Positions 3,158 through 14,040 of a stretch of 29,930 nt of DNA are shown in pieces (position 1 is the stretch's first letter; each line of letters starts with the position of its first letter). A program made the position numbers and the translations under genes. The notes under the pieces are model-generated. The model made no database searches, had not been told where the DNA came from, and saw nothing but the letters and a program-made list of their open reading frames with translations. Source of the DNA: Thermoplasmata archaeon (lineage in GTDB: Archaea; Thermoplasmatota; E2; DHVEG-1); NCBI GenBank assembly GCA_003649845.1, contig QMTB01000001.1, forward strand, positions 1-29,930, written 5' to 3'.

Positions 3158-3736
3158 ATGGTTCGAATATATGTGATAGACAATGGTGGACAATGGACGC
3201 ATAGAGAATGGCGTACCCTTAGAGATCTAGGAGTTGAAACAAGGATTCTACCAAATACTACCCCCTTCAATATAATAGAAAAGGAGAGGGTAGATGGATT
3301 GATTTTATCTGGTGGAGCACCTAGAATGGGTTTACAAAGCGAACTTGGTAACTGCGGGGAATACCTTGAAAAATCTTCTTTCCCTATCCTAGGTATATGC
3401 GCTGGACATCAATATATCGCTAGATTTTTTGGAGGAGAGGTTAAACCATCTAAAATACCAGAGTTTGGAAAAATAGAATTAGAAATCCTAGAATCAGATG
3501 ATGAGATATTCAAAGATATACCAAGGAGAATTATAGCATGGGAATCACATAACGATGAAGTTACTAAGATGCCATCGAATTTTATTCATCTAGCTAAAAG
3601 TGAAAACTGTCTCATACAGGCGATGAAACATAGAGATAAAGCAATCTATGGACTACAATTTCATCCAGAAGTAGAACATACAGAGTATGGAGAAAAAATC
3701 TTTGAAAACTTCATAGAGATATGCAGACAATATTAA
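3158..3736 (+). CDS. guaAA: GMP synthase glutamine amidotransferase subunit A
   Basis: IDNGGQWTH, LILSGG, catalytic GICAGHQ, WESHNDEV, GLQFHPEV (Cys-His-Glu triad). Start set at ATG 3158, 4 nt after the guaAB stop, rather than TTG 3140. Confidence 0.95.
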   Translation: MVRIYVIDNGGQWTHREWRTLRDLGVETRILPNTTPFNIIEKERVDGLILSGGAPRMGLQSELGNCGEYLEKSSFPILGICAGHQYIARFFGGEVKPSKIPEFGKIELEILESDDEIFKDIPRRIIAWESHNDEVTKMPSNFIHLAKSENCLIQAMKHRDKAIYGLQFHPEVEHTEYGEKIFENFIEICRQY

Positions 3737-4296
3737 TCTTTTGAACCCCAATGTTCATATAAAGAATGAGTAAAACCTAGTTGATCCAATATTTTACCGA
3801 TGATAAAATCTATCAAATCATCTATTGTCTTAGGCTTATGATAGAAGCCTGGAGATGCCGGCATTATAATAGCTCCATTCAAATAAACCTTCTGCATATT
3901 CTCAATAGCCGATAAATCTAGAGGAGTTTCTCTAATTACTAAAACCAATTTTCTCCTCTCTTTTAGAATACATAAAGCTGCTCTACTGGTAAGAGTATCA
4001 GAATAACCATTAGCTATAGCTGAAAGAGTTTTTAAACTACAAGGTACAACAACCATTGCATCTATATTAAAAGAGCCGCTAGCTGGTGGAGCAAAGAAAT
4101 CACTGTTATCATAGAAGTAGTCAGCTATCTTTCTGATATCCTCAAGATAGTATGATGTTTCATATTCTAGAATATCCATAGCATTCTTAGATATAATCAA
4201 ATGTATCTCTACATTCATCTTCCTAAGTTCTTTGAGTAAACGAACGCCATAGATTACTCCAGAAGCTCCTCCTATACTAAGTAGTATTTTATCCAT
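3733..4296 (-). CDS. ubiX: Flavin prenyltransferase UbiX
   Basis: GGASGVIYG, PPASGS, VVPCSLKTLSAIANG, RETPL, PASPGFYHKP. Start overlaps the GGGPS stop (TAATG). Confidence 0.95.
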   Translation of the reverse strand: MDKILLSIGGASGVIYGVRLLKELRKMNVEIHLIISKNAMDILEYETSYYLEDIRKIADYFYDNSDFFAPPASGSFNIDAMVVVPCSLKTLSAIANGYSDTLTSRAALCILKERRKLVLVIRETPLDLSAIENMQKVYLNGAIIMPASPGFYHKPKTIDDLIDFIIGKILDQLGFTHSLYEHWGSKD

Positions 4297-5039
4297 TAAA
4301 CTCCCTCTATAGCTTCTATAATAGTTTTAAGATAATCTTTTAGATTCTCTTTATTTTTCTCTAAAGCAGTACCTGTAACTATGATATCCGCTCCTGCCTT
4401 AGCTTTTCCTCTAGCAGTTTTGGCATCTCTTATACCTCCGCCAACTAGCAAAGGTAAATCTACATTCTCTTTAACAGCAGATATCATCTCATTCGGCACT
4501 GGTTTAGGTGCACCAGAACCAGCTTCTAGATAAAAAAATTTCATTCCTAGATATTTTGCAGCAAGAGCGAAGCCAACAGCTGTTTTAATATCATTTCTTT
4601 TAACTGGATCGACTTTACCAACTCTACCAACAGTCATACCGGGTTCAACGATAAGGTATCCCATAGGTAGCGGTTGAATACCAGTGTCTCTAACAAAAAA
4701 AGCTCCTTTAACATGCTCTCTTATAACATAATCTACATCCCTAGAGTTTAATAGACTCATGAAGAATATACCATCCGCGTATTTGCTTAGATGTTCTGCA
4801 CTAGATGGAAAAAGTATAACAGGTAAGGTGCTTTGGGCTTTTATAGCCAAAATTGTTTCATCGACTTGTTTACTAGAAGCGATTGTTGAACCACCAACCA
4901 TAATAGCGCTGCTACCTGCCTCTTCTACAGTTTTTGCTAAAACCCCTGCATCATCAGCACTCTGTTTATCTGGATCTATCAAAGAAAAATGTAATTTTTT
5001 CTCCTCTAGTTTTTGAAGGATATAATCAGTAAGATTCAT
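4296..5039 (-). CDS. Geranylgeranylglyceryl phosphate (GGGP) synthase, group II
   Basis: LIDPDK, IMVGGS, LFPS, FFMSLLNS, MGYLIVEPG, YLEAGSGA, VGGGIRD, VTGT. AAGGAG SD upstream. Confidence 0.95.
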   Translation of the reverse strand: MNLTDYILQKLEEKKLHFSLIDPDKQSADDAGVLAKTVEEAGSSAIMVGGSTIASSKQVDETILAIKAQSTLPVILFPSSAEHLSKYADGIFFMSLLNSRDVDYVIREHVKGAFFVRDTGIQPLPMGYLIVEPGMTVGRVGKVDPVKRNDIKTAVGFALAAKYLGMKFFYLEAGSGAPKPVPNEMISAVKENVDLPLLVGGGIRDAKTARGKAKAGADIIVTGTALEKNKENLKDYLKTIIEAIEGV

Positions 5040-5156: not shown

Positions 5157-5579
5157 ATGAAGGTATATGGGTTTATAAAAAATCATAAAGGAGTATCTAC
5201 AGTTATAGCATCCATTCTTACTTTAGCTATAGTTGTAGCATTAGTAGCAGTAGCATACGTCTATATTAACAGCTCTACTTCAAATCTCTCCCCGGAGATC
5301 TCAGCGTTTATTACAGTTGATTATAGCAACGGTCAGATCAATATTGTTATGAATTCTGGGGATATGATAAAAAATGCTTTTAAAAATGGTTCATGGTATA
5401 ATCTAGAAGTTAAAATCAATGGAGCTATTGTAAATACTAGCAATGTCACTTGTTCAACTGGGGATGATTTCTTAGCTGGGAGTAAGATTACTATAACAAA
5501 AACTCTTCATAGTGGAGATACGGTATCCGTTATATATAAACCAGCGAATCAGCTACTTAGAGAATACACATATTCCTAA
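5157..5579 (+). CDS. Archaeal type IV pilin-like protein (class III signal peptide)
   Basis: Short basic leader ending KNHKG, then VSTVIASILTLAIVVALVAVAY, a prepilin-peptidase-type site followed by a hydrophobic helix. Small beta-rich head with five N-X-S/T sequons. Confidence 0.85.
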   Translation: MKVYGFIKNHKGVSTVIASILTLAIVVALVAVAYVYINSSTSNLSPEISAFITVDYSNGQINIVMNSGDMIKNAFKNGSWYNLEVKINGAIVNTSNVTCSTGDDFLAGSKITITKTLHSGDTVSVIYKPANQLLREYTYS

Positions 5580-6361
5580 ATCTTTGAGTTAAGAATCTTA
5601 TCGATTAGAGATTCACTACATGCAGCTATTATACTTGTTCTTTCATCTAGATTCAAAGGCATATCTATATCATAACCTCTACGGTTTCTTACTATTCCAC
5701 CTGCTTCTCTGAGTATTAAAATAGAAGCAGCTATATCAGTTACTCTTAGATATTCTCTACCCATTATATAGAAATCTATTGCACCTATAGCAACCATACT
5801 CATCTCCAGAGAAGCTGCTCCAAGAGATCTCACATTATTTTTATCTACAAATTGCAAAGCAAGATCATCTACATTTCTACCTAAATTAAGGCTTGATAAG
5901 ATACTATTAGAAGGGTGATCCGGGGTAAAAATCTGTTTATTATTAAAATAGGCTCCCCTTTCCTTTTCAGCTATAAATATATCACCAGTTGGAATATTCA
6001 ATACAATCCCATATTCAACACTATCTAAGGTATCTCTACCGATAGCAAGAGATGTAGCATAGAAGGGTATACCTCTAATAGCATTTCTAGTTCCATCTAT
6101 TGGATCTAACACCAAAGTATATTCTCCATTCATATCTATATACCCTGACTCCTCGCTGAGTAGATTCACCGGAATCTTAGATTTCCTAATATATCTAATA
6201 GCTACATCCTCTGCTATCTTATCTATATATTCTGTTGGTGTTCCATCTGCGCCGATACCAATATTTCTTCCTAGGTTGATATCCTGTGACTGTAAACTTC
6301 TAATCTTCCTGGAAATACTCTTCGTTATCCTCAAAGCTAATTCTTTAATCTCTAAATTCAT
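5576..6361 (-). CDS. Inositol monophosphatase/FBPase-family (FIG superfamily) phosphatase, possibly NADP phosphatase-like
   Basis: GADGTPT..IDK.AE, LLSEESG, VLDPIDGTRNA, RSLGAASLE, DIAAS..ILREAGG. Confidence 0.9.
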   Translation of the reverse strand: MNLEIKELALRITKSISRKIRSLQSQDINLGRNIGIGADGTPTEYIDKIAEDVAIRYIRKSKIPVNLLSEESGYIDMNGEYTLVLDPIDGTRNAIRGIPFYATSLAIGRDTLDSVEYGIVLNIPTGDIFIAEKERGAYFNNKQIFTPDHPSNSILSSLNLGRNVDDLALQFVDKNNVRSLGAASLEMSMVAIGAIDFYIMGREYLRVTDIAASILILREAGGIVRNRRGYDIDMPLNLDERTSIIAACSESLIDKILNSKI

Positions 6362-7232
6362 CTTTTCTATCCATCCATATATATTCTACTCCAAATACCA
6401 TTAGAATACCTATAATTATAAATAAAGCCATGGATATTGAAAAGGGATATATTATTAATTTATCTATAGGTCTTTTTAATCCACCGATCATGATTCCTAT
6501 TAGAAAGGATAGAGTAACAAACCTATATTTCTTTATAAGGAAGGAGAGCAGATGAGAGAAAGATAGTATACCTATAACCGCTCCTATGAGATAAGCAAAT
6601 ATCGGTGGGAGATAAAAAACCCTCACAGCATTCAACATATAACTATATTGCCCTAATAGCAACATTATAAAAGCACCTGATATACCTGGAAGAATCATAG
6701 CGCATATGGAGATAATACCAGACACAAATATTATAGGTAAAGAATGATCTAACTGTATTTTAGATAAACTTAGGAAAAGATAAGAAGATAGAAAACCTAG
6801 AAATAAAGATATTAGATAAACTATTCTTTTCTCCTCCAGTCTAATATACAACACTATAGCGGAGGATAATATAAGTCCTAGGAAAAAGGAGTATACATAG
6901 ATACTATAGTTAGAGAGCAAGAAATGTATAATCTGTGCTAATACTAGAAAAGCTGTTCCTATCCCAAAAATTAGAGGCAATAGAAAATAAAAATCTATTG
7001 AATATATAGACTGCTTTACTCTATCAATATACCTCCTATCTGATATAGATAATATAAGATATAGAGGTATCTTTGGATCTATAGATTTGATAGCAAAAAC
7101 CAATTTATCATAGATACCTGTGATGAGAGCAATAGTTCCACCGGATATACCTGGTATAATATCAGCACTTCCCATAAGTAAACCTTTTAAAAAAAATATT
7201 AAAAGATGGCCTTTCTTAGCACTTCTAGACAT
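6345..7232 (-). CDS. DUF368-family membrane protein (putative polyprenyl-phosphate transporter)
   Basis: KGLLMGSADIIPGISGGTIALITGIYDKLV and a second repeat AMILPGISGAFIMLLLGQY; multiple hydrophobic segments. Confidence 0.92.
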   Translation of the reverse strand: MSRSAKKGHLLIFFLKGLLMGSADIIPGISGGTIALITGIYDKLVFAIKSIDPKIPLYLILSISDRRYIDRVKQSIYSIDFYFLLPLIFGIGTAFLVLAQIIHFLLSNYSIYVYSFFLGLILSSAIVLYIRLEEKRIVYLISLFLGFLSSYLFLSLSKIQLDHSLPIIFVSGIISICAMILPGISGAFIMLLLGQYSYMLNAVRVFYLPPIFAYLIGAVIGILSFSHLLSFLIKKYRFVTLSFLIGIMIGGLKRPIDKLIIYPFSISMALFIIIGILMVFGVEYIWMDRKDEFRD

Positions 7233-7251
7233 CCACTTCCTCCTCTCAATT

Positions 7252-8562
7252 TTAATCCTTAAAATCCTCTTTATTTGATTCTACAAATAAACCAAAACCC
7301 TTTTCACCTATAAATTCTCCATCATAGATTACTGGTTCTCCTCTAACAAAGAGATATCTAGGAAAAATTGCATGGAAACCTTCAAAGGGAGTCCAACCAC
7401 ATTTTGAATGCATATCCTCTGATCTAATAATTCTGCTTTCTCTATAGTTTACAACTATAAAATCTGCATCATAACCTATTTTAATACCGCCCTTTGGTGC
7501 ACCTAATAGCTTTGCTGGATATTCACATATAAGTTGAATAACTCTCCTCAAGGGTATCTTTTCTATCTTAGAGAGATAGAGGAATAAAGGATACATTGTT
7601 TCAACACCTGGAATACCAGAAGGTGCTTCATTAAACTCTGTCTCTTTTTCATCCAATAGATGAGGAGCGTGATCAGATTCAAGGTTATAGGCATATCCAT
7701 TGTGTAATGCATTGAATAGTTTCTCTCTATCACTATACATTCTAATAGGAGGGTTTACTTTAAACCAAGTTTCAGGTTTAGATGTTTTCTCTATACTATC
7801 AATATCTAATAGCGCATGATGAGGTGTTATACCATAGCTTATATTCTCAGGTTGATTCTTTAAAAAATCTATAGTTTCAGATGAAGAGATATGACAGAAA
7901 TGAATAGAATTCCTTATAGAATTAGATAAAACTCTTTTAATAGCCTCTATCTCACAAATAGATGGCCTCGCAGATAGATGATCTCTAAGATTATATTCTA
8001 TCCTCTTATATTTTTGGAGACATAATTCATCTTCTGCATGAAATAAGATAGGTTTCCCTGTTTCCTCTATTTTCTCCATAGCTTGTTGTAGATAAATAGA
8101 GGGTAAACTAAGAGAAGAAGTTGTTTCTCCAAGATATATTTTAAAGCCACTGCAGATTTTACCTAACTCATCAATTATATCGATGTTGCCTGCATTTACA
8201 CCTGCATAGATTCCAAAATCAATGAAAGAATGTTTTGAAGCTAATTCTTTCTTCTCTAAGAAACCCTCTATATTGGTTGTATTCGGCTTAGTGTTTGGCA
8301 TATCAAAAAAACAGGAGATACCTCCATATGCGGCTGCCTTGGAACCTGTTATAAAATCTTCTTTATATGTAAAACCAGGTTCCCGGAAATGCACATGGAT
8401 ATCTACACCAGAGGGTATTATGATGCTATGAGGAAATCTTTCTCTTCGATCGCCATCTAAAATTTTTTTGATAGATGTAATCTTCCCATCAGTTATACCT
8501 ATACAAGCTTCTTGAAAACCTTGCTTTGTATATATATTTCCTTCCACTACTATTTCATCCAT
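7252..8562 (-). CDS. pyrC: Dihydroorotase (amidohydrolase superfamily)
   Basis: DIHVHFREPG, DMPNTKP, FKIYLG, FHAED, HFCHIS, KVNPPIR, SDHAPH, APSGIPGVET. Start set at ATG 8562, overlapping the upstream stop (ATGGATGA). Allantoinase cannot be fully excluded. Confidence 0.85.
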   Translation of the reverse strand: MDEIVVEGNIYTKQGFQEACIGITDGKITSIKKILDGDRRERFPHSIIIPSGVDIHVHFREPGFTYKEDFITGSKAAAYGGISCFFDMPNTKPNTTNIEGFLEKKELASKHSFIDFGIYAGVNAGNIDIIDELGKICSGFKIYLGETTSSLSLPSIYLQQAMEKIEETGKPILFHAEDELCLQKYKRIEYNLRDHLSARPSICEIEAIKRVLSNSIRNSIHFCHISSSETIDFLKNQPENISYGITPHHALLDIDSIEKTSKPETWFKVNPPIRMYSDREKLFNALHNGYAYNLESDHAPHLLDEKETEFNEAPSGIPGVETMYPLFLYLSKIEKIPLRRVIQLICEYPAKLLGAPKGGIKIGYDADFIVVNYRESRIIRSEDMHSKCGWTPFEGFHAIFPRYLFVRGEPVIYDGEFIGEKGFGLFVESNKEDFKD

Positions 8563-9151
8563 GTAAAGGTTTCTCCTCAATTCTACCTCTAGGTTCTATC
8601 TCTGTAAATATCTGCCCCGAGAAGGTGTAGAGTTTTGCATCTCTATCAAGCCATGCATCTGGTGGTAACCATGCTTTCATACATGTATTCGCTAGAAATT
8701 CTTCTACATCCCAATTCTCTTCAACTGGCACTTGAGGTAATAGTAAACCAGAGTAGCTACCTTTTCTAATGATAAGCCCATCACGACCTATTTTAATCTT
8801 AGATAGATATTCTTTAGGATCAACTACGTCTAACAATTTCGGAGGAGTTAAAATAGTTACCTCAACAATAATGTCATCTAATTCTTTCTCGGATAGAGGT
8901 GGAAATCTTGGATCTCTAGTTGCAGAAGTAGCTGCTTCAACTAAAGCATCTTGTAGAGGCATAATAGGTTCAGGTATACCTATGCATCCTCTAAGCATAT
9001 GAGAGGGATATGTATGTATAGTTACAAAAACACCTTGTTTCTCTCTAAATATAGATCCTAGGTCCTCTTTTGGAATAGGATCTTGTTTAACGTATGCCTC
9101 AATAACTTTACGTGCAAATTTAACTGCCTTCTCACCCTCTTCGAGATTCAT
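8555..9151 (-). CDS. AMMECR1-domain protein (archaeal TIGR00296-like)
   Basis: GVFVT, LRGCIG, AATRDPRF, VEVTILTPP, IGRDGLII, GLLLPQVPVE, CMKAWL. Confidence 0.93.
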   Translation of the reverse strand: MNLEEGEKAVKFARKVIEAYVKQDPIPKEDLGSIFREKQGVFVTIHTYPSHMLRGCIGIPEPIMPLQDALVEAATSATRDPRFPPLSEKELDDIIVEVTILTPPKLLDVVDPKEYLSKIKIGRDGLIIRKGSYSGLLLPQVPVEENWDVEEFLANTCMKAWLPPDAWLDRDAKLYTFSGQIFTEIEPRGRIEEKPLHG

Positions 9152-9169
9152 AGATACAGAGATACTGTT

Positions 9170-9190
9170 GGAAATAAATAAAATTTGGGG
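9170..9190 (-). promoter_or_regulatory. Putative TATA for the AMMECR1-pyrC-DUF368-IMPase genes (leaderless)
   Basis: Minus strand reads AAATTTTATTTATTTCC about 20-35 nt upstream of ATG 9151; no SD. Confidence 0.4.
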
Positions 9191-9207
9191 AGAGAGTGTT
9201 ACGTTAG

Positions 9208-12200
9208 TTATTCTTCTCTTGCCAACAGTATATCAAAGGTTTTTACACCCTCCCCAACATTGACAATTAGATGTCCACTATAAGTATAGGTAACAATTTG
9301 ACCACTTACATTTACAGGTTGGCTAACAGAAACATTATATGTACCAGGTCTAAGTAATACACTATAGTAACCTGTTTCATCTGATCTAGCAGAGGAAAAT
9401 CTAGCGGTATTATTTGCGATAGAGCGATCAGGTGCAAATGCAATAGATACATTATATATTGGTATCATATCTTCTTGATCAATAGTTTGACCACTCACAT
9501 TTACAGGTATATAATCAATTGATACGTTTACTAATTTGGTCTTATTAGATTCAATAGTTACATTTTCTACACCAAAGTATCCAGGTAGTTTTGTAACATT
9601 AATCTGATAATCGCCTGGGGTGAGAGATCTAAAGGAATATCTACCTGTAGCATTTGTCACTAGAGAATCAACAAATTTATCAGTTGGAGTAGTTGTATAT
9701 ATAAGATTAACAGTTGCACCTTCTACTTCTTCACCAGCATCATATTCTCCATTATCATTCTTATCAAAGTATATTATACCAGATACATTACCTGGCTTTG
9801 GAAGTACTACATCATGGGTTGTGTTGCCCTCCGGCACCTTTATAAGTGTGTTCTCAATTTGGAAGCCATCAGGAGTTAAAACAGCTATCTGATATATACC
9901 TGGTAGTAAACCGGAGATGGTATAAGAACCATTTATATCCGTTCTAACATCTCGTATCATATTATAATCATATGTCTCTACTTGTCCTGTTTGGTTATCA
10001 AATGAGTTTATACCTCTAACTGCAACCTGTGCATTTGCAAGAGGTTGATCAACAGATGCATTATAACCACTCTCATTTCCCTTCTCATCATATACATAGC
10101 CTTTTATTGTCCCAGGTTTAATTTCAATTGTAATGAAACGAGTATTGTTATCAGTATTGCGCATAGCTTCATCTTCTGTTATAGGTGCTAGAGACGTATC
10201 ATTTTTGCTATTAAACGTTACATTAGTTACAGCAAAAGCATTGACACCGAGTTCAGGATAACGACGGACTTGTATACTTATATTACCAGCAGGCGCTATA
10301 ACATGGAATGAACCATTTACAGCTAAATCTCTATCATGATCAATTGGAATCTCTCCACCATAGAGAGATACATTCTTTCGAACTACAACTTGTAGATTCT
10401 GAGGTTTACCATCAAATAAAATAGTTCCATTGATATAGGCACCTTCATAGTATTTAGCGATAACTACAGCGGTTTTACCAGGGTTACCTTGGTAATATAT
10501 ATATTTTGGATATGGAGAAACATACTCTGCATAGAAATGGCGCATATTAAGACAGGGAATCTGATAATCTGGTTCAGTTTTTACTTTACCTCCACCAACG
10601 CCAGAGGATTTCTCAGTTGCAGGACCAATGTATGTTTTATAGAACATCGTATTGAAATATGCATCTTTATAGACTGTTTTTGTCTGTACAACTGGATCGG
10701 ATCTACTCTCAGCAACTGTCCTATCCTTCCATTCATCATATGTTAATTCTCTGCCACTCTGGGTAACAAATTTAATTTGAATAAAATCATCTTCAGGTAC
10801 ATCACCTTCTCTCATGGCAAGTAGAACTAAACTTTTATCTGCCAAGAAAGAGAAGATATTGAATATCTGTTTATCATATCCTTCAACACCATAGTATCTA
10901 ATACTTTTACCCGTTACCTTTTGTAGGTCATGATATAGCCAGGTTATATCCTCATCGTCTAATTTATTAGTTAGAAGAGCAGAGGCATCATGATAGACAG
11001 CATTCATAGGCCATTGTTCTCCAACTGGATGATCTTTAGCGATCTTATGATCATATGCAAGGGCGATAGGACGCCCATATGAGGGGGATTCCTCTGGATT
11101 CTCAACCCATTGAATAATCTTACTGCTATCGTTTTTCCCGAGGTGATCCTCTAAAACATTTTTAACAGACTCTGTGAGTTTACCATCATTATGGAAAACA
11201 TCTCCTTCAAGTAATCTAATTATCCATATGGAAACAGCTTCTTTCTCACTCGTAGCTGTATGAAAGTTTGCAGCAGGTGGTATACCATCTTGAAAGTTAT
11301 CAGCAACCGTAGGATGCCCACCTACAGCAACCTCATAAAATCCATAATCCCACCAGGAGATAAAGGCAGGTCTCTCAGCAGGATCTTCTATATCAGTATC
11401 CTGTGAAGCAAGCCATGTGTAGGCATCTACCCAATAACCCTCTTTACCGAGACCAGTAAAGAAAGCACCATTAGGTAGATCACCAAAGACCTTTTTCTTC
11501 TCTGTGAAAGGCACAGCAGCATCTAATGAAAGATAAGCATTTGGCAAGATAATAATCAAAGCTATGAGAAGTATTCCAAATATATGCATGAATTTAACCC
11601 CTCTCTTTAGACCATGTAAACCACCGCCAACGTTGCGTATAACTTTAACCATTTCAGGATAATTGATCTTATCAACTACATACCATGTGAAGTAGCTGCT
11701 AAATAATGCAACTAATGGGACTAAATCATTTAGGAAACGACCTGCACTAGCAGATAACCACATTTCTATAAAGAAAACAACTATCAGCAGGAGATGATCC
11801 CTACGTTGATTATATCTTATAAATCTATAAGCTATCAACAGGAAACCAGCCCAAGCAATCCAATATAATGCTGGACCAAAGGACATCACCGTTCTACTTA
11901 TACCATATACATTAGCCTCTGCGATAGTTTGAGATACTTTCTTACCATAAACTCCACCGCCATATATAATAGTCCATATATCCTTAAGGTGAGCAAGAGG
12001 AGGGAATATATCTGAGAGAACTGGTATAAAGTAAAGGAATATTAGTCCTGCTACAATAACAAGTAGGATAATAGGTACAGATAAAGTCCAAGGAATTCTC
12101 TTTCTATTTAGAATATAACATATAATTCCTAAGATAATTACTCCGGTAATTGTTAACAGAGGGGTATTAAAAACTATGCCATGTTTGGCAGATATCACTG

Positions 12201-13074
12201 GGAGAGAAATAATATAACCTGTAAATAAAACAAGGAATGAAGAAGTTGCAACCTTTAAATCAATTTTACTTCGATAGATGTCAACAAATATCTGAATTAT
12301 CGTGTAAGCAAATATAACTACGTATAAAAATTTAGCTTCAACCCAAACCATAGATAAACCTGCAAGGGGCATGCCCCCTAAAAGGGCATATAATCTGGAT
12401 TTTGTTTTATCAGATTCCTTTAAACTTTTTATAAGAAAAGCATAAGTTAAGAAGAAAAGGAGGAGGTTGAGAGAATCATGATCAAATAAAGTATATGCAG
12501 AACCATGACCGGAGCCTAGATGAATTGGAATTAAAGGTATAAATAGAGCAGCTAGGAGGCCTTCTTTTCTACCGAAAACAGTCCTTCCAATAACATATAT
12601 TGGGAAAACTATAAGCGCTCCAAATAAAGCAGGTATAAACTGCATAGAATAACCTATTGCATCAACCTCGCTCATAAAAGGAGTAAGGAACCTAGCAAAA
12701 GCTATAGCAAGCATATTCATAAGTGGAGCTCTACCGCCACTCCTTCCAAGAGGATAATTCAGTAGGGGATCATTATACGAATAATAGGGGTAATGTCCAG
12801 GGTTTTCACCATATAATGTTTCCTTAATTAATCTCATATTATAATATGGATCTGGACCGGATAGATAATATTTGGAAAAACCTTCACCAGTAGGATTAAA
12901 TGGTTCTCCACTTGTTACATTGAAATACGAGTTTAGAAATAAAACTAATAGGAAAATTGCAACTAGAGATAGAGCAATCCACCAGTTTTTAGGTAAAAAG
13001 CTTTTTAATGATTTAGCCTCTGTTGTTTTAGCAGATTCAGTTGATTTGGTTTTTTTCACTGCTCTTTTCCGCAT
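9208..13074 (-). CDS. aglB: Oligosaccharyltransferase AglB (STT3 family), long form with C-terminal carboxypeptidase-regulatory-like/SdrD-B-like beta-sandwich repeats
   Basis: About 13 TM segments; GPDPYY, FDHD, TIAE, WWDYG (11341-11355), ADNFQ. Start set at ATG 13074, preceded by AGGTGA, with a TTTATAAG box at 13122-13115. Confidence 0.95.
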   Translation of the reverse strand: MRKRAVKKTKSTESAKTTEAKSLKSFLPKNWWIALSLVAIFLLVLFLNSYFNVTSGEPFNPTGEGFSKYYLSGPDPYYNMRLIKETLYGENPGHYPYYSYNDPLLNYPLGRSGGRAPLMNMLAIAFARFLTPFMSEVDAIGYSMQFIPALFGALIVFPIYVIGRTVFGRKEGLLAALFIPLIPIHLGSGHGSAYTLFDHDSLNLLLFFLTYAFLIKSLKESDKTKSRLYALLGGMPLAGLSMVWVEAKFLYVVIFAYTIIQIFVDIYRSKIDLKVATSSFLVLFTGYIISLPVISAKHGIVFNTPLLTITGVIILGIICYILNRKRIPWTLSVPIILLVIVAGLIFLYFIPVLSDIFPPLAHLKDIWTIIYGGGVYGKKVSQTIAEANVYGISRTVMSFGPALYWIAWAGFLLIAYRFIRYNQRRDHLLLIVVFFIEMWLSASAGRFLNDLVPLVALFSSYFTWYVVDKINYPEMVKVIRNVGGGLHGLKRGVKFMHIFGILLIALIIILPNAYLSLDAAVPFTEKKKVFGDLPNGAFFTGLGKEGYWVDAYTWLASQDTDIEDPAERPAFISWWDYGFYEVAVGGHPTVADNFQDGIPPAANFHTATSEKEAVSIWIIRLLEGDVFHNDGKLTESVKNVLEDHLGKNDSSKIIQWVENPEESPSYGRPIALAYDHKIAKDHPVGEQWPMNAVYHDASALLTNKLDDEDITWLYHDLQKVTGKSIRYYGVEGYDKQIFNIFSFLADKSLVLLAMREGDVPEDDFIQIKFVTQSGRELTYDEWKDRTVAESRSDPVVQTKTVYKDAYFNTMFYKTYIGPATEKSSGVGGGKVKTEPDYQIPCLNMRHFYAEYVSPYPKYIYYQGNPGKTAVVIAKYYEGAYINGTILFDGKPQNLQVVVRKNVSLYGGEIPIDHDRDLAVNGSFHVIAPAGNISIQVRRYPELGVNAFAVTNVTFNSKNDTSLAPITEDEAMRNTDNNTRFITIEIKPGTIKGYVYDEKGNESGYNASVDQPLANAQVAVRGINSFDNQTGQVETYDYNMIRDVRTDINGSYTISGLLPGIYQIAVLTPDGFQIENTLIKVPEGNTTHDVVLPKPGNVSGIIYFDKNDNGEYDAGEEVEGATVNLIYTTTPTDKFVDSLVTNATGRYSFRSLTPGDYQINVTKLPGYFGVENVTIESNKTKLVNVSIDYIPVNVSGQTIDQEDMIPIYNVSIAFAPDRSIANNTARFSSARSDETGYYSVLLRPGTYNVSVSQPVNVSGQIVTYTYSGHLIVNVGEGVKTFDILLAREE

Positions 13075-13112
13075 TATTCTCACCTTATCTTGATTCACAC
13101 TTGTAAAAAGAT

Positions 13113-13127
13113 GGTCTTATAAATACC
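13113..13127 (-). promoter_or_regulatory. Putative TATA box of aglB
   Basis: Minus strand GTATTTATAAGAC immediately after the prs stop; its spacing places GTG 13098 at or before the expected transcription start. Confidence 0.5.
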
Positions 13128-13985
13128 TTACTTACCTTTTAGCATCTCTGCTAACAGTGGAGCAACCTTAACTTTGCTAAAAGGATTAGGTATTGTGTCT
13201 GTTGTAACTATCTCATCACATCCAGCGTTTCTTATTTTTTCAATGGCATTACCTGCAAAAACACCATGGATGCAGGCTGCAATAGCTTTCTCTGCCCCCT
13301 GTCTTTTAAGTTCCTCTATAGAGGAAGCTATGGTTCCACCTGTAGAAATGATATCATCTACTATAGCTATATTTTTCCCATTTACATCGAGTTTCTTAGG
13401 AGTAACTTCTATAGTTATCCCATCTATACGAGTCTTCTCTAGATAGTCTACTTCACATTTTAGGATATCTGCAGCTACTTCTGCTCGTTTCAATGCACCT
13501 TTATCTGGTGCAAGAACCATATCTATGTTTTTATCTTTGAGATAATCAGCTATCAATGGAATCGCTGAAGATACCTTACAAGGTATACCAAAGAAATCAG
13601 AAATATATTCTTTATGAGGATCGATTGTAACAACGTCATCTGCGTCTATACTAATTATCCTAGCAATAGCCTTAGCGCTTATTGGTTCACCTTCATTGAA
13701 TTTTCTATCCTGTCTTGCATATCCCATATATGGGATAACAGCCGTTATATTATCTGCATTAGCCTCTCTAGCAGCATTTAGAATTAGAAGCAATTCGATA
13801 ATACTTTCATCTGGATATGCTGTTTGTATAACTACTATTCTATGCCCCTTTATTTCCTCTGGAATTCGTAAGTATAACTCTCCATCTGGAAATCTCTTAC
13901 TCACTAAATCTATCAAGGGCATTTTGAGGAGTTTTGATAAATCCTCTGCAATTGATTTTGATCTACTCCCGCCGATTATCATCAT
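13128..13985 (-). CDS. prs: Ribose-phosphate pyrophosphokinase (archaeal type)
   Basis: RFPDGELYLR, PYMGYARQDR, GEPISA, LAPDKGAL, PRPP-binding IVDDIISTGGT, HGVF, TDTI. ATG 13985 preferred over GTG 13997. Confidence 0.96.
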   Translation of the reverse strand: MMIIGGSRSKSIAEDLSKLLKMPLIDLVSKRFPDGELYLRIPEEIKGHRIVVIQTAYPDESIIELLLILNAAREANADNITAVIPYMGYARQDRKFNEGEPISAKAIARIISIDADDVVTIDPHKEYISDFFGIPCKVSSAIPLIADYLKDKNIDMVLAPDKGALKRAEVAADILKCEVDYLEKTRIDGITIEVTPKKLDVNGKNIAIVDDIISTGGTIASSIEELKRQGAEKAIAACIHGVFAGNAIEKIRNAGCDEIVTTDTIPNPFSKVKVAPLLAEMLKGK

Positions 13986-14040
13986 GGTTTCATTCACAAT
14001 AATAAAAATTTAGTTTTAAATTGTTTTCATATCATCGAAT

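Follow-up and report, generated by a model that had tools for sequence, protein, structure and literature searches.

The DNA analyzed here (the window) is a 29,930-nt stretch of contig QMTB01000001.1 from a Thermoplasmata archaeon (order DHVEG-1; assembly GCA_003649845.1). It includes a same-strand run of genes for ribose-phosphate pyrophosphokinase (prs), the oligosaccharyltransferase AglB, an AMMECR1-family protein, dihydroorotase (pyrC), a DUF368 protein, and an IMPase/FBPase-family protein (Table 1). The run is compact: prs and aglB are separated by 29 nt, aglB and the AMMECR1 gene by 56 nt, and pyrC and the DUF368 gene by 19 nt. The end of the AMMECR1 gene overlaps the start of pyrC by 26 nt, and the DUF368 stop overlaps the IMPase start by 17 nt. 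The IMPase gene is followed by a convergent pilin-like gene and then by genes for GGGP synthase and UbiX. AglB has an STT3 core with a WWDYG motif and C-terminal beta-sandwich domains, and it is the sole STT3 match in its own 1.72-Mb, 84%-complete assembly.

Table 1. Features of the DUF368 locus (positions in the window; strand as encoded)
Feature	Coordinates	Strand	Description	Support
DUF368/PopT-family gene	6345..7232	-	295 aa; candidate polyprenyl-phosphate (dolichyl-phosphate) translocase	PF04018
PGISG motif 1, residues 27-31	7140..7154	-	sits at helix break	
PGISG motif 2, residues 182-186	6675..6689	-	sits at helix break	
IMPase/FBPase-family gene	5576..6361	-		PF00459; NF009321, 233 bits
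19-nt spacer between pyrC and DUF368	7233..7251	-	Shine-Dalgarno-like GAGGAGG	read from sequence
Dihydroorotase, pyrC	7252..8580	-	upstream flank of the slot	TIGR00857, 300 bits, above cut-off
AMMECR1-family gene	8555..9151	-		PF01871, E 1.5e-53
56-nt spacer after aglB	9152..9207	-	T-rich, TATA-like run; putative terminator/promoter	read from sequence
aglB, oligosaccharyltransferase	9208..13098	-	1296 aa	PF02516, TIGR04154
prs, ribose-phosphate pyrophosphokinase	13128..13997	-	first gene of the conserved block	PF13793, PF00156
GGGP synthase and UbiX	3733..5039	-	downstream part of the block	NF003198, 318 bits; TIGR00421, 234 bits

The GAGGAGG sequence ahead of the DUF368 start fits translation of the gene as an internal member of a polycistronic message. 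Some 20-35 nt upstream, the AMMECR1 and aglB starts are each preceded by a T-rich, TATA-like run (9152-9207 and 13099-13127), with TTTATAA upstream of aglB; these runs suggest separate promoters within the same-strand run. Judging from these spacers, aglB and the AMMECR1-pyrC-DUF368-IMPase unit may be separate transcripts.

An earlier note on this DNA had claimed a DUF368 gene with two intact PG(I)SG repeats, and both claims hold. The plus strand of the interval contains stops throughout, while the minus strand is an open frame. The predicted protein matches PF04018 (VCA0040-like / undecaprenyl phosphate translocase-like) with an E value of 2.4e-67 and 227.5 bits, versus a 26-bit cut-off, and its residues 20-254 cover model positions 1-227 of 246. 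The only NCBIfam matches are two polyprenyl-phosphate transporter models, NF052564 (PlprenPhTpVIBCH, 225.0 bits) and NF052563 (PopT, 82.1 bits), neither of which reaches the equivalog cut-off of 400 bits. The protein is a PF04018 family member outside both NCBIfam equivalog groups. It shares about 38-45% identity with bacterial members and 48-51% with its closest homologues outside the order, which are in Methanobacteria; in itself it is an ordinary archaeal member of the family.

The repeats are IIPGISGGT (residues 25-33) and ILPGISGAF (residues 180-188). Both motifs are invariant in alignments with 11 members of the same order and with 35 archaeal and bacterial homologues; across the latter the invariant positions are P27, G28, S30, and G31 in the first motif and P182 through G186 in the second. 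BLASTP aligns the N- and C-terminal halves with each other in the motif regions (E 2e-5; 40 aa at 40% identity), indicating an internal repeat with one PG(I/V)SG motif per half. In a confident AF2 model built from the 35-sequence alignment (pLDDT 93.1, pTM 0.86), the first motif falls in the break between helices 4-25 and 31-38 and the second in the break between helices 165-180 and 186-192. No sequence relative was found in the PDB, and Foldseek with the model returned no match at E <= 0.001. A wide VIA-align search gave a best Z of 6.3, below the level that the tool deems meaningful; aquaporin and formate-channel folds, at Z of about 5.5 over about 150 residues, are likewise below it.

Bacterial DUF368 proteins have been tied experimentally to translocation of undecaprenyl phosphate (UndP) (bioRxiv 10.1101/2022.02.03.479048; PMC9876793). 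Staphylococcus aureus PopT was described as a polytopic protein whose fold shows inverted two-fold symmetry, the motifs lying on helices that are re-entrant or broken (bioRxiv 10.1101/2022.02.03.479048). The window protein has PF04018 and the duplicated PG(I/V)SG motifs in common with PopT (SAOUHSC_00846) and Vibrio cholerae VCA0040, is similar in size and polytopic build, and in its AF2 model has helix breaks at the motifs. It differs from them in falling short of the equivalog cut-offs and in its host, an archaeon that lacks peptidoglycan and in which dolichyl phosphate (Dol-P) would serve as the carrier.

Many archaeal genomes carry a DUF368 gene, as reported by Roney & Rudner in 2022, who found 37% of archaeal duf368 genes in glycosylation clusters, often adjoining aglB, and proposed that the archaeal PopT homologue recycles the Dol-P freed by AglB (bioRxiv 10.1101/2022.02.03.479048). 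In the same year Sit et al. showed that the Haloferax volcanii DUF368 gene partly restores growth of V. cholerae delta-vca0040 under alkaline conditions (PMC9876793). The idea of Dol-P recycling by archaeal DUF368 is plausible; having been published in 2022, it is not new. Our literature searches found no later paper on archaeal PopT, no experiment on an archaeal DUF368 protein in an archaeon, and no description of the positional alternation described below.

A distance of 1,975 nt separates the aglB stop from the DUF368 start downstream of it, which bears out the earlier note's placement of the gene about 2 kb downstream of aglB on the same strand. Two genes, AMMECR1 and pyrC, lie between them. 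From this arrangement and the family assignment the note had proposed a Dol-P recycling flippase. The family assignment stands and a polyprenyl-phosphate translocase role is plausible, but the proximity to aglB turns out to be a weak argument. Within the order, the prs-aglB-AMMECR1-pyrC-DUF368-IMPase(-GGGPS-ubiX) block is conserved wherever DUF368 fills the slot between pyrC and the IMPase gene, and this synteny holds at DUF368 identities of 41-67%. Beyond the order the linkage is lost: whole-genome HMM searches of 10 other archaeal genomes, from Methanobacteria, Methanomicrobia, and other Thermoplasmata, put the DUF368 and STT3 genes on separate contigs in all 10. A tblastn search with the window AglB found no match within 10 kb of DUF368 at 13 other archaeal loci. 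At the class level the slot is associated with pyrC, not with aglB.

The surroundings of the gene also differ from the published duf368-aglB synteny. As with H. volcanii DUF368 (HVO_RS12060) and its archaeal counterparts, the window gene is near aglB on the same strand and has the same proposed role. However, the two genes are not adjacent, being separated by two housekeeping genes and a TATA-like spacer, and the linkage is limited to one order. The window gene lies outside any agl cluster: its neighbours are AMMECR1, pyrC, the IMPase-family gene, and prs, and no other agl or glycan-assembly genes were found next to it. Because the synteny is an order-level feature of a housekeeping block whose flanking genes are not involved in glycosylation, the DUF368-aglB proximity, although real and conserved, is weak evidence for functional coupling.

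Some DUF368 genes occur in quite different settings. At the DUF368 loci of families f6 and f9 no block genes were seen. A divergent DUF368 gene (28% identity to the window copy) in a genome of sister family f6 (G067; L145:4793-12788) lies within a trp operon, in the order trpE, trpG, trpD, trpC/F, DUF368, trpB, trpA, and in another f6 genome (G091) DUF368 adjoins a Trp/Tyr-tRNA synthetase gene. A Candidatus Iainarchaeum MAG (DPANN; L033:612-1331) has a DUF368 match with one in-frame stop, which pseudogenization, an error in sequencing, or recoding might explain.

The more informative feature of the locus is the slot itself. DUF368 is patchily distributed, being present in 12 of the genomes of 41 relatives and in 4 of 24 sampled members of the window's own family. 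Inspection of pyrC neighbourhoods in genomes lacking it revealed an intact block in which the slot holds a membrane protein of 150-200 aa. Against PF06695 ('putative small multidrug export protein'; cut-off 30.7 bits) this protein scores 132-140 bits; one member also has a VTT_dom match (E 4.7e-4) that is below the VTT_dom cut-off. Its AF2 model has a pLDDT of 92.1. The PDB contains no sequence relative of the PF06695 profile, and Foldseek with the model gave no match at E <= 0.001. The PF06695 gene lies between pyrC and the IMPase gene in 22 relatives. In every relative examined pyrC adjoins the slot, and directly after pyrC, in about 45 genomes, we found only DUF368, PF06695, or an empty slot. 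The slot is truly empty in one genome (G004), where it measures 20 nt. It is also empty in G027, which has a different, methanogen-like DUF368 gene elsewhere and no high-scoring PF06695.

A few apparent exceptions were examined individually. The DUF368 gene of G025 looked like a remnant but proved to be intact, with a stretch of 100 N breaking it up. Apparent absences of DUF368 in G001, from the same genus as the window's genome, and in G003 are uninformative, as the contig ends inside pyrC in the former and a scaffold gap lies inside pyrC in the latter. In G059 (L153:5713-9378) a 1221-aa subtilase-family gene follows DUF368 with a 26-nt overlap and fills the roughly 4 kb between it and the IMPase gene. 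In the G030 MAG, contigs C70 and C16 (L023, L024) end or start in near-identical DUF368-IMPase sequence; these are probably strain variants or an unresolved assembly overlap, and not a true duplication.

To describe the distribution more broadly we scored slot-type PF06695 (112 bits or more) and DUF368 in 151 genomes of the class: 41 have DUF368, 81 have slot-type PF06695, and 29 have neither. No genome has both, except for one borderline case from family f6 at 111.6 bits. In the window's family (n = 68) the corresponding counts are 23 with DUF368, 37 with the PF06695 type, 8 with neither, and 0 with both. About 12 genomes would be expected to have both if the two were independent, a figure to be read with the caution that kin are not independent; switch events were therefore counted too. 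Some of the genomes with neither gene reflect assembly gaps, as in G001 and G003. A tree inferred for 45 genomes from seven flanking proteins, concatenated, requires no fewer than 8 switches from one of DUF368 and PF06695 to the other; counting empty slots as well raises the number to 10.

The history of the slot can be partly reconstructed. The PF06695 tree follows family structure, and in four other families of the class PF06695 adjoins pyrC without aglB; PF06695 is thus the ancestral occupant. The slot-borne DUF368 genes fall into two clades. The window copy pairs as sister with the one in G030, a genome that belongs to a different family (support 99/97 and 96), whereas the sister of the window's genome in the flank tree (G071) carries the other DUF368 clade. 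This points to separate lateral acquisition, and the window gene was probably acquired from another family of the order. Members of a single genus also differ, two species having PF06695 and two DUF368, with clean breakpoints: DNA similarity of 70-77% extends across aglB, AMMECR1, and pyrC, stops where pyrC ends, and picks up again in the IMPase gene.

Slot-type PF06695 is one of several classes in these genomes. A second paralogue class scores about 75-106 bits and a third (210-250 aa, 45-67 bits) is nearly universal. The window's genome has one member of the second class, a 160-aa, 101-bit protein whose gene (L136:7785-8267, G000:C36) adjoins a TauE/SafE-family gene near TiaS. Many DUF368-bearing genomes have a similar paralogue at 100-106 bits, as do G008, G009, and G158 in addition to their slot type. 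Its long-type gene (L139:2916-3572, G000:C92; 218 aa, 64 bits) overlaps the fibrillarin end by 4 nt and is tail-to-tail with a polyprenyl synthetase gene (3562-4536); this long, low-scoring type was found in nearly all 41 relatives. Since two other PF06695 paralogues are present in the window's genome, the loss of DedA-type genes is not total. Neither a canonical DedA nor a BacA was found in that genome.

The remaining known UndP flippases belong to the DedA family proper (bioRxiv 10.1101/2022.02.03.479048; PMC10127716). PF06695 was placed in the DedA superfamily by Okawa et al., who stated its function as unknown; the superfamily has eukaryotic members, TMEM41B and VMP1, in ER membrane and lipid processes (bioRxiv 10.1101/2020.12.18.423352). 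Bacterial genomes encoding COG2035/DUF368 have few COG0586 DedA genes (PMC10127716). The situation here resembles that of the DedA UndP flippases UptA/YngC and PA4029, in that DUF368 and a DedA-superfamily gene are alternatives that are anti-correlated across genomes. It differs in that the alternative is PF06695, an uncharacterized branch of the superfamily, and in that the alternation is positional, involving one slot, clean breakpoints, and many switches.

We considered canonical DedA (PF09335) as a clean third alternative and rejected it as a rule, as it co-occurs with DUF368 (G017, G021) and with PF06695 (G019, G024). Three genomes without DUF368 and slot-type PF06695 (G004, G079, and G120) have two canonical DedA genes each. 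An approximately 85-bit PF09335 subtype (G004:C32:15060-15434, G079:C6:520320-520694, G120:C89:2066-2446) occurs, among the sampled family genomes, only in those without both occupants, and this subtype may be a third substitute.

With moderate confidence, we predict that the window DUF368 protein is a translocase for polyprenyl phosphate and carries Dol-P back to the membrane's cytoplasmic side. AglB, and any transferases that use Dol-P-linked sugars, would release Dol-P at the outer face, and the DUF368 protein would bring it back for reloading of the carrier. The two PGISG half-helix motifs probably come together in the middle of the membrane to bind the phosphate head group, with the polyprenyl tail remaining in the bilayer, a mechanism already put forward for bacterial PopT. 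The protein would be expressed from the third gene of the tight AMMECR1-pyrC-DUF368-IMPase unit just downstream of aglB. In this order the slot has two interchangeable occupants, DUF368 and the small PF06695 protein.

The alternation of the two families in one slot hints that they do the same job, and as both come from families or superfamilies linked to UndP flipping in bacteria, the swap supports the translocase reading to a limited degree. It is better support than proximity to aglB, yet still limited. Under homologous recombination, sharing a slot leads to automatic replacement, so the mutual exclusivity is partly structural. In addition, two or more genomes (G004, G166) lack both occupants, and the function may therefore be dispensable or covered by other proteins. 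That DUF368 and PF06695 are, in this order of uncultured sediment Thermoplasmata, equivalent Dol-P-return cassettes which lateral transfer and homologous recombination have swapped eight or more times at the one slot is a serious possibility that we put forward tentatively. The choice of cassette may reflect energy coupling or niche (pH, sodium).

The same observations could be explained in other ways. DUF368 could be a broader lipid translocase, for example a scramblase for archaeal ether phospholipids or their precursors in membrane growth, and not a dedicated Dol-P recycler. GGGP synthase and UbiX are encoded within the same conserved block, and the alternative slot occupant is an uncharacterized protein of the superfamily that includes TMEM41B and VMP1, which take part in membrane and lipid processes of the ER and are described as phospholipid scramblases. 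To our knowledge, no archaeal lipid scramblase has been identified. The block is functionally mixed, however, and in the window the IMPase gene and the convergent pilin gene separate the GGGP synthase gene from DUF368; moreover, all experimental data on DUF368 concern UndP. We regard a general scramblase as unlikely. A second possibility retains polyprenyl phosphate as the substrate and changes the pathway served, to one that builds a lipoglycan, an O-glycan, or another surface polymer on a polyprenyl carrier. Methanobacteria, the source of the closest homologues outside the order, build pseudomurein on such a carrier, and the separation of DUF368 from aglB in all 10 other archaeal genomes fits this idea. 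Against it, AglB is the only STT3 protein of the genome and is highly conserved in the block, which offers no other glycan-assembly gene next to DUF368. In any pathway built on a polyprenyl carrier, moreover, the carrier is freed on the outer side, and the mechanism would not change. A role separate from AglB seems to us distinctly unlikely.

It is also conceivable, and in our judgment highly improbable, that DUF368 is an ion-coupled transporter of a small soluble solute, and that its nearness to aglB and alternation with PF06695 reflect a neutral, recombination-prone slot. Conserved housekeeping flanks favor cassette exchange by homologous recombination, the slot of G059 also houses the large subtilase, and DUF368 occurs in unrelated contexts, such as the trp operon of G067 and beside the tRNA synthetase gene of G091. 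Yet across the roughly 45 genomes just two families, or nothing, follow pyrC directly; both come from families or superfamilies linked to polyprenyl-phosphate flipping, and bacterial genetics place DUF368 in the UndP cycle.

The swap offers a clue to what PF06695 proteins do. The window gene adds one example to a published hypothesis; what is new here is the alternation of DUF368 and PF06695 cassettes. It amounts to a natural replacement experiment repeated many times and gives PF06695, which is a large family, a functional prediction that can be tested cheaply. If the prediction is true, PF06695, which is widespread in bacteria, archaea, and plastid-bearing eukaryotes, would be a third group of polyprenyl-phosphate translocases. 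More broadly, the swap suggests that archaea exchange their genes for carrier recycling as cassettes.
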